From Candidatus Binatia bacterium (GTDB taxonomy: Bacteria > Desulfobacterota > Binatia > HRBIN30): 64,000 nucleotides of DNA. Every line of letters starts with the position of its first letter. The stretch's first letter is position 1. Below are positions 11,230-18,436 of this stretch, piece after piece. The notes below the pieces were generated by a model, which ran no database searches, was not told the DNA's origin, and saw only the letters and a list, made by a program, of their open reading frames with translations. The DNA is taken from the NCBI GenBank assembly GCA_038245295.1, contig JBBRSP010000003.1:32001-96000 (forward strand). The letters are read 5' to 3'. A program made the translations under genes and the position numbers.

Positions 11230-11791
11230 CGCCCGTTTGCCTGGTCGCGTCTTGATGGTGGCGATCGCCGTGCTCTGTTCGCTGCACGCGGCATTTGCCG
11301 AGCCAGCCAAGAAGGCCGACACGGCGAGCCCGGAGACCATGCTCGGCGCGTTGTCGTTCAGTTCCAGCAAGGATCCGATCGCGATCAGCGCCGACACTCT
11401 GGAGTTCGACTACAAAGGCCGTGTTCTCTCCTACAAGGGGAACGTCATTGCCATCCAGGGCGACATGAAACTGCAGGCCGACAAGGTGAATGTCACCCTC
11501 AACGCCACCGGGCAGAGTCAGCAACTGCGCGAGGTCACGGCGATCGGCAAGGTGCGGCTGGAAAAGGGGGCGCGCTGGGCGACCGCGGGCCGCGCTGTTT
11601 TCGATCAAACGCAACGTCGAGTGGTGTTGAGCGAGAACGCTGTATTGCAAGACGGGTTGAATCAGGTCCGCGGCGATCGCGTGATCGGTTATCTCGACGA
11701 GGCTCGTTGGGTGGTTGAAGGTGGCAGCCAGCGGGTGCAAGCGATTCTCGTTCCGCCGCAGCACGAGGCAACGCCTGAGGCGAAGCCGTGA
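11213..11791 (+). CDS. lptA: LPS transport periplasmic protein LptA
   Basis: Signal peptide, [27 protein letters not shown]; synteny with lptB. Confidence 0.85.
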
Positions 11792-12528
11792 CAACCGTTG
11801 CCACGCAAACCTCGCTGCGGGCCAGCGGCCTGTGTCTGCGCCTCGGTGGGCGCGAGATCTTGAAGTCGGTGCACTTGGACGTGCAAGGCGGGCAGGTCGT
11901 CGGACTGCTTGGCGCCAACGGCGCGGGCAAGACGACGACGTTCTACACGATCGTCGGTCTTCAGCGGCCCGATCAGGGCAAGATCGAGCTCAACGGTGAC
12001 GACATCACGCGTCTGCCGATGTTCCAGCGTGCCCGCCGCGGCGTCAGCTACCTGCCTCAGGAGCCCTCGGTGTTTCGGAAATGGACCGTCGAAGAAAATA
12101 TTCTGGCGATCCTCGAGACACTGCCGCTGAGCGTCAACGAACGTCGCGAGCGCCTGGCGCAGTTGCTCGATGAGCTCAGTATCTCGCATCTGGCGCGCAA
12201 TATGGCGTACTCGCTTTCAGGCGGCGAGCGACGGCGCGTCGAGATCACACGTGCGCTGGTGACCGAACCAACTTTCATGTTGCTCGACGAACCTTTTGCA
12301 GGCATTGATCCGATTGCTATTCTCGACATCCAGAATATCGTAAGCCAGTTGAAGGGCAGAGGGATCGGAATTCTGATTACAGACCATAACGTGCGCGAAA
12401 CGCTCGGCATCTGCGATCGCGCCTATATCCTTCACGAGGGTTCGGTTCTCGAAGAAGGAACGCCCAGCGAGATCGCTCAGAGCCGTCGTGCCCGCGAACT
12501 TTATCTAGGCGAGAACTTCAGGCTCTAG
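11788..12528 (+). CDS. lptB: LPS export ABC transporter ATPase
   Basis: [51 protein letters not shown]. Confidence 0.97.
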
Positions 12529-12532
12529 GTCC

Positions 12533-14017
12533 ATGGCTCTCGAAACCAAGCTCTACCAGAAGATGACGCAGCAGCTCGTGATGACCCCGCAATTGCGGCA
12601 GGCCATCAAGATTCTGCAGGTGTCGCGCGCCGAGCTCGAGACCCTCATCGATGAGGAGATGGCGCAGAATCCCGTCCTTGAAGAAGAGGTCGAGGAGCGT
12701 CCGCGCGATATCGAGCAGATGCGCAGCGAATCAACCGGGCAGGATGAGCGCGCCACCGATACCGAGTGGCCCGAAACGCCGGTGGAGCGCGATACGACCA
12801 CCGAGGTCTCCAGCGATAAGATGGGCGAGATCGACTGGAAGGAATATCTCGACAACTACAGCAACGATTGGCACGAGAGCAGCGCGGCCTCGGCGGAAGC
12901 GGAAGACGACGAAGAACGGCGTCCTCTCTACGAAAATACCCTGACCCGCGAAGCCTCGCTGACCGAGCACCTGGTTTTCCAGCTGCGCATGAGTGGCCTC
13001 GACCCTATCGAAGAATCGATTGCGGCCAACCTGATCGGCAACATGGACAAGGACGGCTACGTTAAGGTCGAGATCGAGGACATCGCCTTCCAGTGCAACT
13101 ATGCCTTCGATGCCGTCGAATCGGTTCTGAAGCGGATTCAAGCGCTCGACCCGCCCGGAGTCGGGGCGCGTGATCTGCGCGAATGCTTGCTGCTGCAATT
13201 GACGATCCTGGGTGAGGAAGACGGTCTCGCGGCCAGGATAATCCGCGATCACCTCTCCTTGCTCGAGAATAAACGCTACGACCGTATCGCTAAGGAACTC
13301 GGGGTGACGATTCCCGAGGTGGTGGCCGCGGCGGGGTACATCGCCACACTCGAGCCCAAACCAGGGCGCAATTTTGGTGACGGCGACGTGCGCTACATCA
13401 CGCCCGATGTGTTCGTCTATAAAATCGGCGAAGAGCTGCTCGTAACACCGAACGACGATGGCCTGCCGCGTCTGCGCGTAAGCAACTTCTATCGCCGCGT
13501 TCTCGGTGACGGCGAGGCGAGTGATGCCAAACGTTACATCCAAGAGAAGATGCGCGCCGCTTCGTGGCTGATCAAGAGTATTCAGCAGCGCCAGCGTACT
13601 CTGCTGCTGGTGACCGACAGCATCGTGCGTTTTCAGAAAGAGTTCTTCGAGCACGGAATCTCGCATCTCAAGCCGCTCGTGTTGAAGGACGTGGCGCTCG
13701 ACATCGGTATGCACGAGTCGACGGTCAGCCGCGCTACCGCCAACAAGTACGTTCACTGCCCGCAGGGTACCTACGAGTTGAAGTTCTTCTTCACGTCGAG
13801 CCTGCAGACCGATTCCGGCGACGACATTTCCGCCGAGACCGTGAAAGAACGCATCAAGGAAATCATCGCGGCCGAAGATGCGCGCAATCCTCTCAGCGAT
13901 CAGCATATCGCCAAGATGCTTGCCGGAGAGCATGTCGGCATCGCCCGCCGCACGGTTGCCAAGTATCGCGAGATGATGGGTGTGTTACCGTCGTCGAAAC
14001 GACGTCAGGTGTTTTGA
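12533..14017 (+). CDS. rpoN: RNA polymerase sigma-54 factor
   Basis: MTPQLRQAIKILQ, HESTVSRA, RpoN box ARRTVAKYRE. Confidence 0.98.
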   Translation: MALETKLYQKMTQQLVMTPQLRQAIKILQVSRAELETLIDEEMAQNPVLEEEVEERPRDIEQMRSESTGQDERATDTEWPETPVERDTTTEVSSDKMGEIDWKEYLDNYSNDWHESSAASAEAEDDEERRPLYENTLTREASLTEHLVFQLRMSGLDPIEESIAANLIGNMDKDGYVKVEIEDIAFQCNYAFDAVESVLKRIQALDPPGVGARDLRECLLLQLTILGEEDGLAARIIRDHLSLLENKRYDRIAKELGVTIPEVVAAAGYIATLEPKPGRNFGDGDVRYITPDVFVYKIGEELLVTPNDDGLPRLRVSNFYRRVLGDGEASDAKRYIQEKMRAASWLIKSIQQRQRTLLLVTDSIVRFQKEFFEHGISHLKPLVLKDVALDIGMHESTVSRATANKYVHCPQGTYELKFFFTSSLQTDSGDDISAETVKERIKEIIAAEDARNPLSDQHIAKMLAGEHVGIARRTVAKYREMMGVLPSSKRRQVF

Positions 14018-14036
14018 GGGAGGCTGAGGGTCAACC

Positions 14037-14549
14037 ATGGATGTAACGGTTACGTTTCGCCACGTGAGTCCTTCTGTAGTCTTGCGACGTTATGCCGAGT
14101 CGAAGGTCGCACGCCTCGATCGGTTCATTCACAAGCCGGTCCAGGCGCATGTCATCTTGTGCGTCGAGAAGCAGCGCCACACGGCGGAGATCCAGATTTC
14201 CGGACACCAGTTGCATGTGACGGCAAAGAACATCACCGCCGATCTTTATGCAGCGATCGATGGATCCATCGACAAGGTGGAGCAGCAGCTGCGCAAACAC
14301 GTCACCAAACACCGTCGCGGTAAGGGCGAGATCAGTACCGCGCATGCGCTCGATGAAGCCCCAGCCAAGGTGCCGGCGTTGCGACCGCGCAAGACGGTGG
14401 TGCGAGCCATGGCAGTGGACGAAGCGCGCACGACACTCGAGACGACCGAGGTCAGCTTCGTGCTGTTCCGCAACACGGCCAACGACAGTGTCTACCTGAT
14501 GTACCGCCGCACCGACGGCCAACTCGCGTTGCTGGCGCCCGAACTATAG
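14037..14549 (+). CDS. hpf: Ribosome hibernation promoting factor (long HPF/RaiA)
   Basis: VTFRH...DLYAAIDGSIDKVEQQLRK plus C-terminal dimerisation-like domain; directly after rpoN. Confidence 0.88.
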   Translation: MDVTVTFRHVSPSVVLRRYAESKVARLDRFIHKPVQAHVILCVEKQRHTAEIQISGHQLHVTAKNITADLYAAIDGSIDKVEQQLRKHVTKHRRGKGEISTAHALDEAPAKVPALRPRKTVVRAMAVDEARTTLETTEVSFVLFRNTANDSVYLMYRRTDGQLALLAPEL

Positions 14550-14561
14550 AGAGACTCGACC

Positions 14562-15023
14562 ATGCGCATCGTCGACATTCTTCGCGAAGACGCCGTCATC
14601 GCCGAGCTCAGCGGCCGCACCAAAGATGCGGTCTTGCGTGAGTTCGCCGATCACATCGCCAGCATCTATTCCGAGATCGATGCGGCTCGCCTGCTCGAAG
14701 TGTTGTGGGAACGCGAAAGGCTTGGCAGCACGGCGATCGGTGATGGCATCGCGATTCCGCACGGCAAGCTGAGCAGCGTCACCGGGGTCGTCGCCGCCTT
14801 CGGCCGGCATCGGGATGGGGTCGAGTTCGAATCACTCGACGGCAATCCGTCGCGGATCTTCTTCGTGCTCATCGCGCCGGCCGACTCGGTGGGCTTGCAT
14901 CTGAAGGCCCTGGCGCGCGTCTCGCGTTTGCTCAAGGAAGACTCCTTCCGTAAGGCTCTCCTGGTGGCGGGCGATCGCAGCGATCTGTACCGCATCATCC
15001 GCGAAGAAGACGAGAAGTACTGA
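14562..15023 (+). CDS. ptsN: PTS IIA(Ntr)-like protein
   Basis: RERLGSTAIGDGIAIPHGK, HLKALARVSRLLK. Confidence 0.92.
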   Translation: MRIVDILREDAVIAELSGRTKDAVLREFADHIASIYSEIDAARLLEVLWERERLGSTAIGDGIAIPHGKLSSVTGVVAAFGRHRDGVEFESLDGNPSRIFFVLIAPADSVGLHLKALARVSRLLKEDSFRKALLVAGDRSDLYRIIREEDEKY

Positions 15024-15060
15024 GAGCCGCGCTCGAGCTGCTCGGCACGAGAAGACCGGT

Positions 15061-15339
15061 ATGTCGGAAGAGGCAACGACAAAGGTACTCACCATCAAGA
15101 ACCGCCTTGGCTTGCACGCGCGCGCCGCGGCGCAACTGGTGCAAACCGCCAACAAATTTCCGGCGGATATTACGGTGAGCAAGGACGGCCAGGCGGTCAG
15201 CGCCCGTAGTATCCTCGGCCTCATGATGCTCGCCGCCGGCATCGGCAGCACAATCGAAGTATCGATCACCGGCGAGCAGGCAGCCGAGGCGATGGCGGCT
15301 GTCGAACAGCTGATCGACGCCAAGTTCAACGAAGAGTAA
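15061..15339 (+). CDS. ptsH: HPr family phosphocarrier
   Basis: NRLGLHARAAA (His15) and SARSILGLM (Ser46). Confidence 0.93.
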   Translation: MSEEATTKVLTIKNRLGLHARAAAQLVQTANKFPADITVSKDGQAVSARSILGLMMLAAGIGSTIEVSITGEQAAEAMAAVEQLIDAKFNEE

Positions 15340-15360: not shown

Positions 15361-16611
15361 CTACGACGGCCGGGGCACGCCAACCGGCACAACCGCGGAA
15401 TGGCGCCGCAGTAGCGAGTTGACGATTGCCGTCATCTGATCACAGAGCTCCTGGGCATGCTGCAGCTTCTGCGCCGACTCCTGGCGCATTCCCGTGTCGG
15501 TGAGGCCAATCAGCTCGAGATATCCGGCCGCCGCGGCGAGCGGGTTCTTCAAGTCATGGGCGACCGTCCGGGCATACGCATCGAGCTCGCGGATGAGCCG
15601 TACACGTTCGGTGACGTCGTGTAGGACGATGAGCTGACCGACCGACCGTTGCCTGTCATCACGAATGAGCGAACAGCGCACGTCGACGACCATCGTGTCG
15701 TGGGCCACTTCGCTCGTACTGCCGTCGGCGGCTTCAATGGTGCCTTGCACTCGTTCCCAAAAGGGCAGGAGTGCGGCGACGGGGTCGCCCGGCTGGCCGT
15801 TGCGGTGGATGAGATTTCGCGCCGCGGGATTGAGGTCGAGAAGACGATACTCGTCATCGATCACGATGACGCCGTCGCGATGTTGTTGGAACAACAAGCT
15901 GCGCACGGTCGGCATCACGTCGAGCAGGCGATCATGCAGGGTGACCCACGCTACCGTGACCATCGCGACGAGCAGGGCCACCGGCGTGAGGTCGATGCCG
16001 CGCGTGAGCTGCGTCAGGACCATCGCGTTGACGATGAGCGGCGTCGCCAGGCCGAGGCTCAGCACCACGATGCGGCGAATGTAGAACGTCTGCGATCCGG
16101 ATGTGTGGGCGAAGAGGGCGCCGAGAGCGCCGACGATCAGGCCGTAGGTCAGCGGCAGTTGCAGCCAGTAGAACCCTGGACCAAGCACCATGACGGGGAC
16201 GCGGGCGAAGCCGAGATCAACCCAATCGGAGGGGAGCCAGATGAGTTGGTGATAGGGGTTCGTGACAATCAGCAACAGGTTGACGGTCAACGCCGCCGTT
16301 ACGGGAAAACGGGCGATGCGCCACCACGCCGTGCGCCGCGCGTAGCGACAGGCGAAACGAAAGAAGCAGTAGGTTGCGCCAAGGATGGCCGGGGATGCGG
16401 CGCGCCGCAGCAGATCCTGCAGTGGTGGGTCGTTGATCAGGTAGGACAGCGCGTCTTCCAGGATCCACACGGCACAGCCGACAAGGCAGGCACTCATCCA
16501 TACCGCCGCGGGTTGCCGTCGCTGCCGCCAGAAGTAGATCGCCAGCGCCAGCGCCACAGCGGTGGTGGCGAGTAGGCCGTAAGGCAAGATCCAGGTCGGG
16601 TCGCGCGTCAC
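15361..16611 (-). CDS. 7TM (HisKA_7TM-like) - PAS - DHp protein lacking the HATPase_c domain
   Basis: Seven hydrophobic segments, PAS (DGVIVIDDEYRLLDLNPAA), H-box YARTVAHDLKNPL; stop shortly after DHp helix 2. Confidence 0.85.
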   Translation of the reverse strand: MTRDPTWILPYGLLATTAVALALAIYFWRQRRQPAAVWMSACLVGCAVWILEDALSYLINDPPLQDLLRRAASPAILGATYCFFRFACRYARRTAWWRIARFPVTAALTVNLLLIVTNPYHQLIWLPSDWVDLGFARVPVMVLGPGFYWLQLPLTYGLIVGALGALFAHTSGSQTFYIRRIVVLSLGLATPLIVNAMVLTQLTRGIDLTPVALLVAMVTVAWVTLHDRLLDVMPTVRSLLFQQHRDGVIVIDDEYRLLDLNPAARNLIHRNGQPGDPVAALLPFWERVQGTIEAADGSTSEVAHDTMVVDVRCSLIRDDRQRSVGQLIVLHDVTERVRLIRELDAYARTVAHDLKNPLAAAAGYLELIGLTDTGMRQESAQKLQHAQELCDQMTAIVNSLLRRHSAVVPVGVPRPS

Positions 16612-16720
16612 GGTTGTGAGTTATTCTGCCGTCGAGCCGGAAGTGCAAGCGTTGTCGACAACAAGACCCGGGGGCACGGAAGATTGCGTAGGACATCCTA
16701 CAACCGGTAAGCAGGGCGGC

Positions 16721-18436
16721 GTGTCGGCTTCGACCATTTACGAGACGGTGCCGTGGATTCTAGGCGTCGCAACCGTCGGCGCGCTGTTGCTCGGCGGGTA
16801 TGCATGGACCCAGCGGCAACAGCCTGGCGCCCGTTGGCTGGCGTTGATGCTGTTGATCGCCGCCCTGTGGGCGGCATGTGACCTCGTCAGCTTCGTTGCC
16901 GAGATGCCGACACTCGAAGGCATGCTCAAGCGTTTCACGTGGTGGCTGATTCTCGGCGGCGGGTACACATTTTTGCGTTTCGCCGGCGTTCACGCGCGTC
17001 ACGAAGCCTGGTGGGAGCGCGTGCGTCTGCCGGTACACGCGCTGATTGCCGTCAACCTGTTGCTGATGCTCACCAATGGGCAGCACAATCTCATGTGGGC
17101 CAGCGAAAAGATCGTCGACCTCGGCTTTGCGCGGCTGCCATGGCTCGAGCCGGGGCCCGCCTTCTTCTGGATCTTTCGCCCGCTGGCCGCGGGCCAGCCC
17201 CTGGCTGGAGTCGTCGTCCTGCTGATCAGCGCCTTCGGCTCCCCGGGAATCTACATCCGGCAGATCGTTACGCTAGCGATCGGTGCGGCGATTCCGGTGG
17301 TGGTCAATGTGCTGTTCGTGTCGACCTCGGCGCCCGAGCTCGACACGACTCCGGTAACCGTGGTGATCGTCGTAACTGCCTTTGCTCTATCCACCTTCCG
17401 GTTCGGCCTTCTCGACGTGATGCCGGTGGCGCGTGGAATGCTTCTCGACCAGCTCGAGGACGGGGTGATCGTCCTCGACGCGCAATGCCGTGTCGTGGAT
17501 CTCAACCCGGCGGCGCAACGTCTGCTCGGCGGCGCGGGCTTCACGCCAGGTTCACCGGTCGAGCAGCTCGTACCGTTCTGGAACGAAGTACGTGAGGGGC
17601 TCGAGAACGGTGACCAGCCAACCGTCGAAACGGCCCTCGGCGGCGAGAGCGGGAGGTTCATCGAGTTGCGTGCGTCGCGCCTCGGCGGTGAGGATGGCGG
17701 CGCAACGGGACGCGTCCTCGTGTTGCACGATGTCAGTGCGCGTGCCCGCTTGATTCGCGAGCTCGACACCTATGCGCAAACCGTGGCGCGCGATCTAAAA
17801 GCGCCGCTGCAGTCGGTGATCCAGTCGCTCGACGAATTCGCCGGGAGCGAGGTGTGCGGCGCCGACGCCACCAAATATTTGCAGGGTGCCGACCGCGTTT
17901 GCCGCCAGATGACCGGTACGATCGACGCGTTGTTGTTGTTCGCGCAGTTGCGGTCGACGGACGAAGTGCAGCTCGAGGTCGTCGACATGGCCAAGGTCGT
18001 CGAGGCGGCGCTGCATCGCTTGTCCAGTGCCATCGCTGGCGCCGGCGCTGAAATCGTCGTGCCCGAGAGGTGGCCGGTGGTGCCCAGCCGACCGCTGTGG
18101 GTCGAGGAGATATGGACGAACTACCTTTCAAACGCGATCAAATACGGCGGTCGCCCACCGCACATCGAGATCGGCGTATCGACCGAGCAAGCCGAGGTGG
18201 TGCGCTACTGGGTGCGTGATGACGGAGCCGGTCTGAATGAGCAGCAACGCGCTCAGCTGTTCCGCGAGTTCACCCGCCTTGACCCGGGCCGCAGCGAAGG
18301 CCACGGGCTCGGCCTGTCGATCACGCGGCGCATCGTCGAGAAACTCGGCGGCGAGGTCGGCTGCGAAAGTTACCCGGGGCGCGGCAGTACGTTCTGGTTC
18401 ACTCTACCCATGGGAGGCTTGGGAGGAATGGGATGA
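16721..18436 (+). CDS. 7TM - PAS - DHp - HATPase_c histidine kinase-like protein with His->Arg in the H-box (start may be as early as 16616)
   Basis: H-box reads YAQTVARDLKAPL. Intact N (NYLSNAIKYG), G1 (DDGAGL), F (LFREF), G2 (GHGLGLS) and G3 (GRGSTF) boxes. Confidence 0.88.
   Translation: MSASTIYETVPWILGVATVGALLLGGYAWTQRQQPGARWLALMLLIAALWAACDLVSFVAEMPTLEGMLKRFTWWLILGGGYTFLRFAGVHARHEAWWERVRLPVHALIAVNLLLMLTNGQHNLMWASEKIVDLGFARLPWLEPGPAFFWIFRPLAAGQPLAGVVVLLISAFGSPGIYIRQIVTLAIGAAIPVVVNVLFVSTSAPELDTTPVTVVIVVTAFALSTFRFGLLDVMPVARGMLLDQLEDGVIVLDAQCRVVDLNPAAQRLLGGAGFTPGSPVEQLVPFWNEVREGLENGDQPTVETALGGESGRFIELRASRLGGEDGGATGRVLVLHDVSARARLIRELDTYAQTVARDLKAPLQSVIQSLDEFAGSEVCGADATKYLQGADRVCRQMTGTIDALLLFAQLRSTDEVQLEVVDMAKVVEAALHRLSSAIAGAGAEIVVPERWPVVPSRPLWVEEIWTNYLSNAIKYGGRPPHIEIGVSTEQAEVVRYWVRDDGAGLNEQQRAQLFREFTRLDPGRSEGHGLGLSITRRIVEKLGGEVGCESYPGRGSTFWFTLPMGGLGGMG

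Follow-up and report, generated by a model that had tools for sequence, protein, structure and literature searches.

The window analysed here, a 64,000-nucleotide stretch of a Candidatus Binatia genome (contig JBBRSP010000003.1, positions 32,001 to 96,000), carries two paralogous sensor kinase genes, here called L and R, that are transcribed away from each other. [quoted passage not shown] L keeps the phospho-acceptor His352 and has no ATPase domain, and R keeps the ATPase domain and has Arg357 at the position of the histidine. The pair is real and conserved and is not a product of decay, and sequence comparison shows that L lost the ATPase domain and R the phospho-acceptor histidine, a reciprocal loss after duplication. 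The two proteins are probably the complementary halves of a class I sensor kinase that is split in two: they would form an L:R heterodimer, with the ATPase domain of R phosphorylating His352 of L in trans. In a canonical class I kinase the histidine and the ATP-binding domain share one chain, which is the case for neither L nor R; the two functions are on separate proteins in the homologues as well, with L having only the histidine in 13 of 13 sequences and R having an ATPase domain but no histidine in 12 of 13.

The initial annotation had described a head-to-head pair of paralogues about 110 bp apart, and this description holds: the start codons are separated by 109 bp and the proteins are 41% identical over 398 amino acids (E = 1e-86). 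It had also described L as stopping after the DHp helices close to ptsH. The chain indeed ends 64 residues past His352; its stop codon and that of the convergent ptsH, at 15339, are 21 bp apart, and Pfam gives no HATPase match in L. The motif H-D-L-K-N-P is kept in all 13 L homologues, all of which end 55–81 residues past the histidine, and five extra members of the L cluster that cover the site have the histidine and are truncated. When the ATPase domain of R was compared by tblastn with the ∼1.6 kb downstream of L at five loci, only four matches of 13–19 amino acids were obtained (E = 4–6), none of them in the window. Among 50 DHp matches in the genome, L is the sole open reading frame (ORF) without an ATPase match in a profile search that missed one weak PAS-HisKA-receiver protein. 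A second DHp protein without an ATPase domain is present in the same genome; it has a PAS-HisKA-receiver architecture (L089, G000:C2:324821–325942) and no kinase within 30 kb.

The start of R was set at 16721 after database protein P0001 and alignments of homologues, while the ORF list begins at 16616. R has its ATP-binding boxes intact together with the His-to-Arg change, as first read. Asn467, Asn471, Tyr475, Asp500, Gly502, Gly504, Phe514, Arg519, Gly527, Gly529 and Gly531 are invariant in the 13 R homologues, each of which has the ATPase domain. Pfam finds no HisKA match in R. The site of the histidine is occupied by Arg in ten, Gln in two and His in one of these homologues, and by Arg in seven extra cluster members that cover it. 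An Asn-to-Ala change at position H+4 had been proposed as a second lesion, but this site is hypervariable (A, G, D, N, S, G, S, Q, H, K, T, I and T in the 13 sequences), so that the alanine is one state of a released face and not a fixed defect.

In DNA, the divergent pair was found at five distinct loci. Four of these lie in genomes (G000, which is the genome of the window, G025, G028 and G036) and the fifth distinct full pair is on metagenome contigs (L033/L034). The four genomes are among 52 from the order and 301 sampled from the class, and every genome with a match (four of four) holds both genes. The pair is present in three of five genomes of another family and in none of the 25 other genomes of the family of the window. 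L and R proteins on equal-sized contigs (7864, 4523, 4837, 7407, 33076, 50948 and 18120) suggest seven further pairs, while for some L or R proteins on short contigs there is no partner among the records listed. The suggested check of related genomes for the same pair with both defects thus gives a positive answer, and both genes are kept in split form across several genera. When profiles were run against 1.84 billion representatives, a sharp boundary emerged: no L or R member with broad coverage falls below 257 bits and no canonical 7TM-PAS kinase exceeds 221 bits. In a tree built from the region common to both proteins, L and R each form one clade and the two are sisters relative to 12 canonical kinases (Shimodaira–Hasegawa-like approximate likelihood ratio support of 97, 99 and 100), which indicates one duplication. 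Both this tree, from which P0013 was omitted as too short, and the tree used for P0006 below are quick trees. The ratio of nonsynonymous to synonymous substitution rates (dN/dS; Nei–Gojobori, ten pairwise whole-gene comparisons per gene) is 0.23–0.33 for R and 0.18–0.45 for L, with dS of 0.37–1.40, which is high in most pairs. Both genes are under purifying selection, a check that had been suggested at the outset. Their membrane domains are about equally conserved (mean pairwise identity 0.62 and 0.60), and the GC content of the pair is not an outlier. Several relatives carry two to four 7TM-PAS genes in tandem (G025:C16:77522–87349, G003:C134:1502–7609 and G028:C261).

The initial annotation had asked for both key codons to be confirmed in reads. 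Assembled contigs of low depth (2–3), not raw reads, were used for this. In two other samples of the same study the Arg codon is covered with no differences (X2, 17728–17921, depth 3.1; X4, 17585–17849, depth 2), and the X2 contig also spans the His codon and the stop codon of L. X1 may be the source of the DNA analysed here. Contigs from a second study (X3) are identical in both genes and cover neither key codon. A frameshift or sequencing error is ruled out by the conserved defects, the X2 and X4 contigs and the absence of an ATPase remnant downstream of L.

Independent decay of duplicated kinases that have no joint function would be in keeping with the patchy occurrence (four of 52 genomes of the order, none of the 25 others in the family), with the one R that has a histidine and with the one rearranged locus, L035. 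The same lesions are nevertheless found in orthologues that are 45–60% identical, with open frames and dN/dS of 0.18–0.45, and the arrangement and the intergenic motifs are conserved. Orthologues with an ATPase domain in L or a histidine in R had been named in advance as signs of recent decay; the former are absent (none of 13) and there is a single case of the latter (P0006, one of 13). Decay is thus largely refuted by these comparisons and we consider it highly improbable. At L035 (733–2436), an L without its 7TM domain stands head-to-head with an R cut down to its 7TM domain, and short repeats are found at the breaks; this is either a deletion or a misassembly.

The conservation of the first DHp helix points to a division of labour. 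The face and core positions were assigned by ourselves, from helical periodicity and known structures. On the face that carries the histidine, the mean pairwise identity is 1.00 in L and 0.53 in R for positions before the histidine and 0.79 and 0.32, respectively, for positions after it, while the core positions give 0.93 and 0.87. For the outgroup, in which 47 of 49 kinases could be anchored, the same face gives 0.68 before and 0.40 after the histidine. The part of R that is least conserved is the face for docking a receiver domain (0.04 at H+4 and 0.10 at H+11). L, without an ATPase domain, therefore keeps the surface before the histidine best, whereas R, which bears one, lets this surface drift, and this fits docking in trans. 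None of the 26 sequences of L and R has an insertion or deletion from the end of the PAS domain to the site of the histidine, and the coiled coils of L and R are thus in register. From these patterns, the helix of L seems to be maintained as a substrate and as a docking site for receivers, and R seems to be kept as an ATP-binding enzyme with its acceptor face released. All 13 R sequences, and all but one of the 13 L sequences, have a cysteine in the second DHp helix (Cys394 in R and Cys390 in L) that is absent in the 12 outgroup sequences shown. As the outgroup has small residues at this position, no redox role is claimed.

Models of the two proteins were compared with known structures. The complex predicted for the cytoplasmic parts of L and R with ATP and Mg scores 0.57, compared with 0.00 for the best of three controls; the runs agree in at least 88% of the contacts and the predicted local distance difference test (pLDDT) value of the partners is at least 82. 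In a benchmark with 157 solved and 215 mismatched pairs, 116 of the former and two of the latter attained the mark used for this score, 18 of the solved and both mismatched pairs doing so at 0.60 or below. The prediction gives weak support to an L:R heterodimer, and its passing of the mark may reflect likeness to solved DHp dimers. Among the matches listed for the L hairpin, the best kinase is the DHp domain of GacS (Z = 9.0, root-mean-square deviation (rmsd) 1.4, 60 aligned residues), with unrelated hairpins tying at Z = 9.6–9.9. HK853, WalK and VicK do not appear among these matches, but the listing is incomplete and no weight is given to this. GacS is reported to phosphorylate in trans, and mutants of it that lack either the histidine or ATP binding are reported to complement each other (PMC8498467). 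The best TM-score in a Foldseek search with the R model belongs to trans CpxA (0.80, rmsd 3.3), with entries for HK853 at 0.66–0.73. SaBphP2, a top sequence match for R, is trans according to a preprint and has an rmsd to the R model of 6.1–6.3. The 'left-handed' turn of PsBphP1 (PMC11316798) was not used as a guide because trans GacS is termed 'right-handed' in the consulted part of PMC8498467. The conservation of the first DHp helix and the GacS match lean towards a trans bundle, and the ranks of the R model are mixed.

A number of observations weigh against phosphorylation of L by R in trans. By Z, the R model matches cis HK853 as well as or better than trans CpxA (Z = 22.5, rmsd 5.1, versus Z = 20.8, rmsd 4.3), and it fits other CpxA chains and GacS poorly (rmsd 6–9). 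The solved DHp sequences nearest to L are those of VicK and WalK, which are cis kinases (PMC3904827, PMC11371814), and the histidine of L would be out of reach for R if the bundle were of the cis type. Evolved ChrS with a truncated ATPase domain does not need its histidine for its phenotype, and heterodimers of it were not detected (PMC9491836). The aspartate at H+1 is invariant in the 13 R sequences which, together with Arg in ten of them, indicates that this site is not free to vary. P0006, the R orthologue with a histidine, is sister to an R with arginine and its own partner is still truncated. A tree grouping the other 12 R sequences together is rejected (p = 0.0002 in the approximately unbiased test), and the histidine of P0006 most plausibly stems from an error or from reversion by a single base change. 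For P0019, an L protein on a 92.8 kb contig, the records listed include no R on an equal-sized contig. Finally, no conserved receiver is found near the pair at the loci examined, in line with the lack of an adjacent response regulator noted initially; two loci have unrelated receivers 3–5 kb away.

Some of these observations would suit a pair that carries out no phosphotransfer. L would then be a membrane-bound, signal-regulated phosphatase, a phosphate sink or a shuttle for receiver domains similar to Spo0B or ChpT, and R would control L by binding it, either as a pseudokinase of the DivL kind or as an allosteric regulator. L keeps its histidine, the Asn at H+4 and the receiver-docking face, the solved DHp sequences nearest to it are those of cis kinases, R retains the arginine and the aspartate next to it, and the action of ChrS without its histidine keeps such a scheme alive. 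It is harder to reconcile with the poorly conserved docking face of R, which is unlike that of a receiver-binding pseudokinase, with the invariant catalytic residues of R and with the invariant surface of L upstream of the histidine. Receivers are not expected to dock there. We judge this alternative to be unlikely, if still credible. The arginine could also itself be an N-linked phospho-acceptor, with R working without L. The ATP site and the adjacent aspartate are intact and P0216, an unrelated 7TM kinase, has the same change, but Gln in two of the 13 R sequences, a surrounding docking surface that is not conserved and the fact that His-to-Arg is a single base change speak against a dedicated acceptor, and the retention of L would be left unexplained. 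This is scarcely credible. P0216 (589 amino acids) is a 7TM-PAS kinase outside the R clade that combines an ATPase domain with the His-to-Arg change, which is of independent origin.

A split kinase could in principle also do without stable heterodimers. Homodimers of R and of L would meet transiently in the membrane and R would phosphorylate L between dimers, as CheA4 does with CheA3. CheA3 and CheA4 are reported to interact transiently, and separated HisKA and HATPase domains of EnvZ are reported to stay active (PMC3591291); the weak score of the heterodimer prediction agrees with such an arrangement. L and R have, however, DHp cores that are nearly identical and in register, which favours mixing of subunits, and the FasB/FasC pair is reported to give heterodimer and not homodimer signals (PMC12675982). 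We therefore regard transient contacts between homodimers as rather improbable.

In the preferred reading, the L:R split kinase, an ordinary class I histidine kinase of the 7TM-PAS type was duplicated long ago, and sequence and tree show that reciprocal loss followed. The pair is kept head-to-head as a cassette under purifying selection. L and R would assemble through their DHp helices, and probably also through the PAS and membrane domains, into a heterodimer with one active site. R would bind ATP and phosphorylate His352 of L in trans, and L would dock a receiver domain that is encoded elsewhere and hand the phosphate on to it. Protein species that contain L probably also carry phosphatase activity, since L keeps the H-D-x-x-N motif. 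A more specific version can be put forward tentatively, in which the heterodimer is obligate and its single active site is controlled by two separately evolving 7TM-PAS inputs. Kinase activity would exist only in L:R and surplus L2 would be a pure phosphatase, so that the output would be set by both signals and by the L:R ratio from the shared divergent promoter, in a switch-like manner. Switch-like behaviour is predicted for split bifunctional kinases in a study that examined those of the CheA type (PMC3591291). The AND gate for two inputs that had been suggested initially would belong to this version; in FasB/FasC, the nearest precedent, the membrane domain of FasB is reported to be dispensable (PMC12675982). 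HisKA_7TM is listed as a sensor domain without a ligand in the literature consulted. The coordinates of the two genes and of the elements between them are given in the table below. Because the -35/-10-like elements stop 6–7 nt short of the start codon, it is possible that the R transcript is leaderless.

Features of the L/R pair in window coordinates (res, residues; aa, amino acids).
Feature	Position	Strand	Remarks
L gene, 7TM-PAS-DHp, 416 aa	15361..16611	-	His352 and H-D-x-x-N motif kept, without ATPase domain
L DHp (HisKA), res 347-402	15406..15573	-	Pfam E 2.6e-9; AlphaFold2 helical hairpin, pLDDT 93.5
L His352 codon	15556..15558	-	CAT on minus strand; His in 13/13 L proteins
L PAS domain, res 243-338	15598..15885	-	Pfam PAS_4 E 2e-4, 22 bits, below cut-off 23.1
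L HisKA_7TM membrane sensor domain, res 13-234	15910..16575	-	Pfam E 9e-32
Divergent intergenic region, 109 bp	16612..16720	.	Length 100-152 bp at the four other loci
Bipartite motif upstream of L, promoter-like	16621..16649	-	Aligned in 4/5 loci, partly in the fifth; strict pattern once in the genome
-35/-10-like elements before R	16684..16713	+	Aligned in 5/5 loci; end 7 nt before R start codon in the window
R gene, 7TM-PAS-DHp*-ATPase, 571 aa	16721..18436	+	His replaced by Arg357
R HisKA_7TM membrane sensor domain, res 14-235	16760..17425	+	Pfam E 2e-34
R PAS domain, res 242-343	17444..17749	+	Pfam PAS_4 E 3e-8
Arg357 codon CGC at His position of R	17789..17791	+	CGC in 5/5 loci with DNA; X2 and X4 contigs agree
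R HATPase_c with N, G1, F and G2 boxes, res 459-564	18095..18412	+	Pfam E 1e-22

The neighbours of the pair differ at each locus. They are a RES-Xre pair and an extracytoplasmic function (ECF) sigma factor in G025, a methyltransferase and a hydrolase in G028, an oxoprolinase and SRP54 in G036, and an AurF-like protein and an acyl-CoA dehydrogenase in L033. Of the loci examined, only that in the window has ptsH and ptsN next to the pair, and the speculative link to HPr/EIIA(Ntr) that had been drawn from them was dropped as a conserved feature. In the window they belong to a cluster lptB-rpoN-hpf-ptsN-ptsH (11788–15339), where 37 bp separate ptsN from the ptsH that comes after it and neither rapZ nor an HPr kinase gene intervenes; lptB and rpoN are what we take these genes to be from their translations.

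The genome of the window has 65 receiver matches, 19 of which lie more than 3 kb from a kinase, 18 of these being annotated. Occurrence profiles over the 52 genomes of the order were made for four of the 19 orphan receivers, which are found in eight, 48, 48 and one genomes, and none of these four fits the four-genome pattern of the pair. Genome G198 enters only the denominators of 52 and both counts of 48 of 52. The receivers beside 15 loci are at most ∼45% identical to any receiver in the genome of the window. Two orphan single-domain receivers, L087 and L088 (G000:C4:124003–124431 and C4:41279–41668), are each present in 48 of the 52 genomes with best matches that are mostly 60–83% identical, and they are possible signalling hubs for orphan kinases.

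A class I split kinase that is hard-wired by reciprocal loss and has two intact sensors is unusual. Mixing a mutant that lacks the histidine with one that lacks ATP binding is the classic laboratory test for trans-phosphorylation, and evolution seems to have fixed this experiment in a genome. If the proposed mechanism is true, the pair is a clean natural case of paralogues made mutually dependent by reciprocal loss. It would also be a kinase dimer with built-in asymmetry, having one active site, which would be useful for separating the roles of the subunits, and engineered two-component systems could draw on it as a scaffold with two sensors for building logic. Proteins annotated as HisKA-only or as lacking the histidine may likewise be halves of working kinases and not pseudogenes. 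A literature search found no paper on this pair and none that joins Binatia with a histidine kinase, with most subscription papers and supplements lying outside its coverage.

Among known systems, the closest functional precedent appears to be FasB/FasC of group A Streptococcus, and no kinship beyond function is claimed. These two membrane kinase-like proteins are reported to form a heterodimer via their DHp domains and, in the published model, the kinase domain of FasB phosphorylates His246 of FasC, the kinase domain of which is dispensable (PMC12675982). FasC nevertheless still encodes a kinase domain, FasB still has its DHp histidines and phosphorylation in cis is not ruled out in the text consulted, whereas in L/R both losses are fixed in the genes. 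The regulator FasA is encoded in the same locus, while L/R is without a linked receiver. Moreover, L and R are divergent and both of their membrane domains are conserved, while that of FasB is reported to be dispensable (PMC12675982).

A phospho-acceptor and an ATP-binding domain on two proteins are also described for CheA3/CheA4 of Rhodobacter sphaeroides and Hik36/Hik43 of Synechocystis (PMC3591291, PMC7656254). Neither CheA3 nor CheA4 is reported to autophosphorylate alone while the mixture does, and the half bearing the histidine is also a phosphatase (PMC3591291), which makes CheA3/CheA4 the split kinase that is proven biochemically. As described, these are class II kinases that have a P1 domain apart from the rest and lack sensors themselves, unlike L and R, which are membrane-bound, use a class I DHp domain and have a 7TM-PAS input on each half. 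The Hpt/P1 and CheW/P5 domains of the CheA architecture are absent from L and R, for which Pfam shows only 7TM, PAS, HisKA and HATPase_c domains. Kinases split between HisKA and HATPase have been predicted, with 1556 of 42417 HisKA proteins having no HATPase domain, and the part of that study consulted names no natural pair (PMC3591291). RetS and GacS of Pseudomonas aeruginosa resemble the pair as a DHp–DHp heterodimer of different kinases, but their interaction is described as inhibitory, both partners also form homodimers and there is no complementary split (PMC8498467).

Other systems share single features with L or R. In DivL of Caulobacter the phospho-acceptor histidine is replaced by Tyr and the protein acts by binding a phosphorylated receiver. 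R resembles it in the replaced histidine and in the retained DHp and catalytic fold (PDB entry 4q20 versus the R model: Z = 22.2, rmsd 4.5, 215 aligned residues) but differs in its poorly conserved receiver-docking face (0.32) and in travelling with a sister that has only the histidine. In Rv0600c/Rv0601c of Mycobacterium tuberculosis, ATP binding and the histidine are divided between two small fragments of one kinase, whereas L and R are two full sensor paralogues. The two kinase-like proteins are reported to work with one regulator, TcrA (PMC3544749). The canonical HisKA_7TM-PAS-HisKA-HATPase kinases of Anaerolineae, Bacteroidales and Acidoferrales, the outgroup of L and R, share the architecture and the type of H-box and N-box, but combine the histidine and the ATPase domain in a single chain. 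Their identity to R over the full length does not exceed 38%, and with the L profile they reach no more than 221 bits. The L/R pair would thus work like a split kinase outside the CheA type, and it differs from these systems in that the genes themselves have fixed both losses and each half has a full membrane and PAS input.

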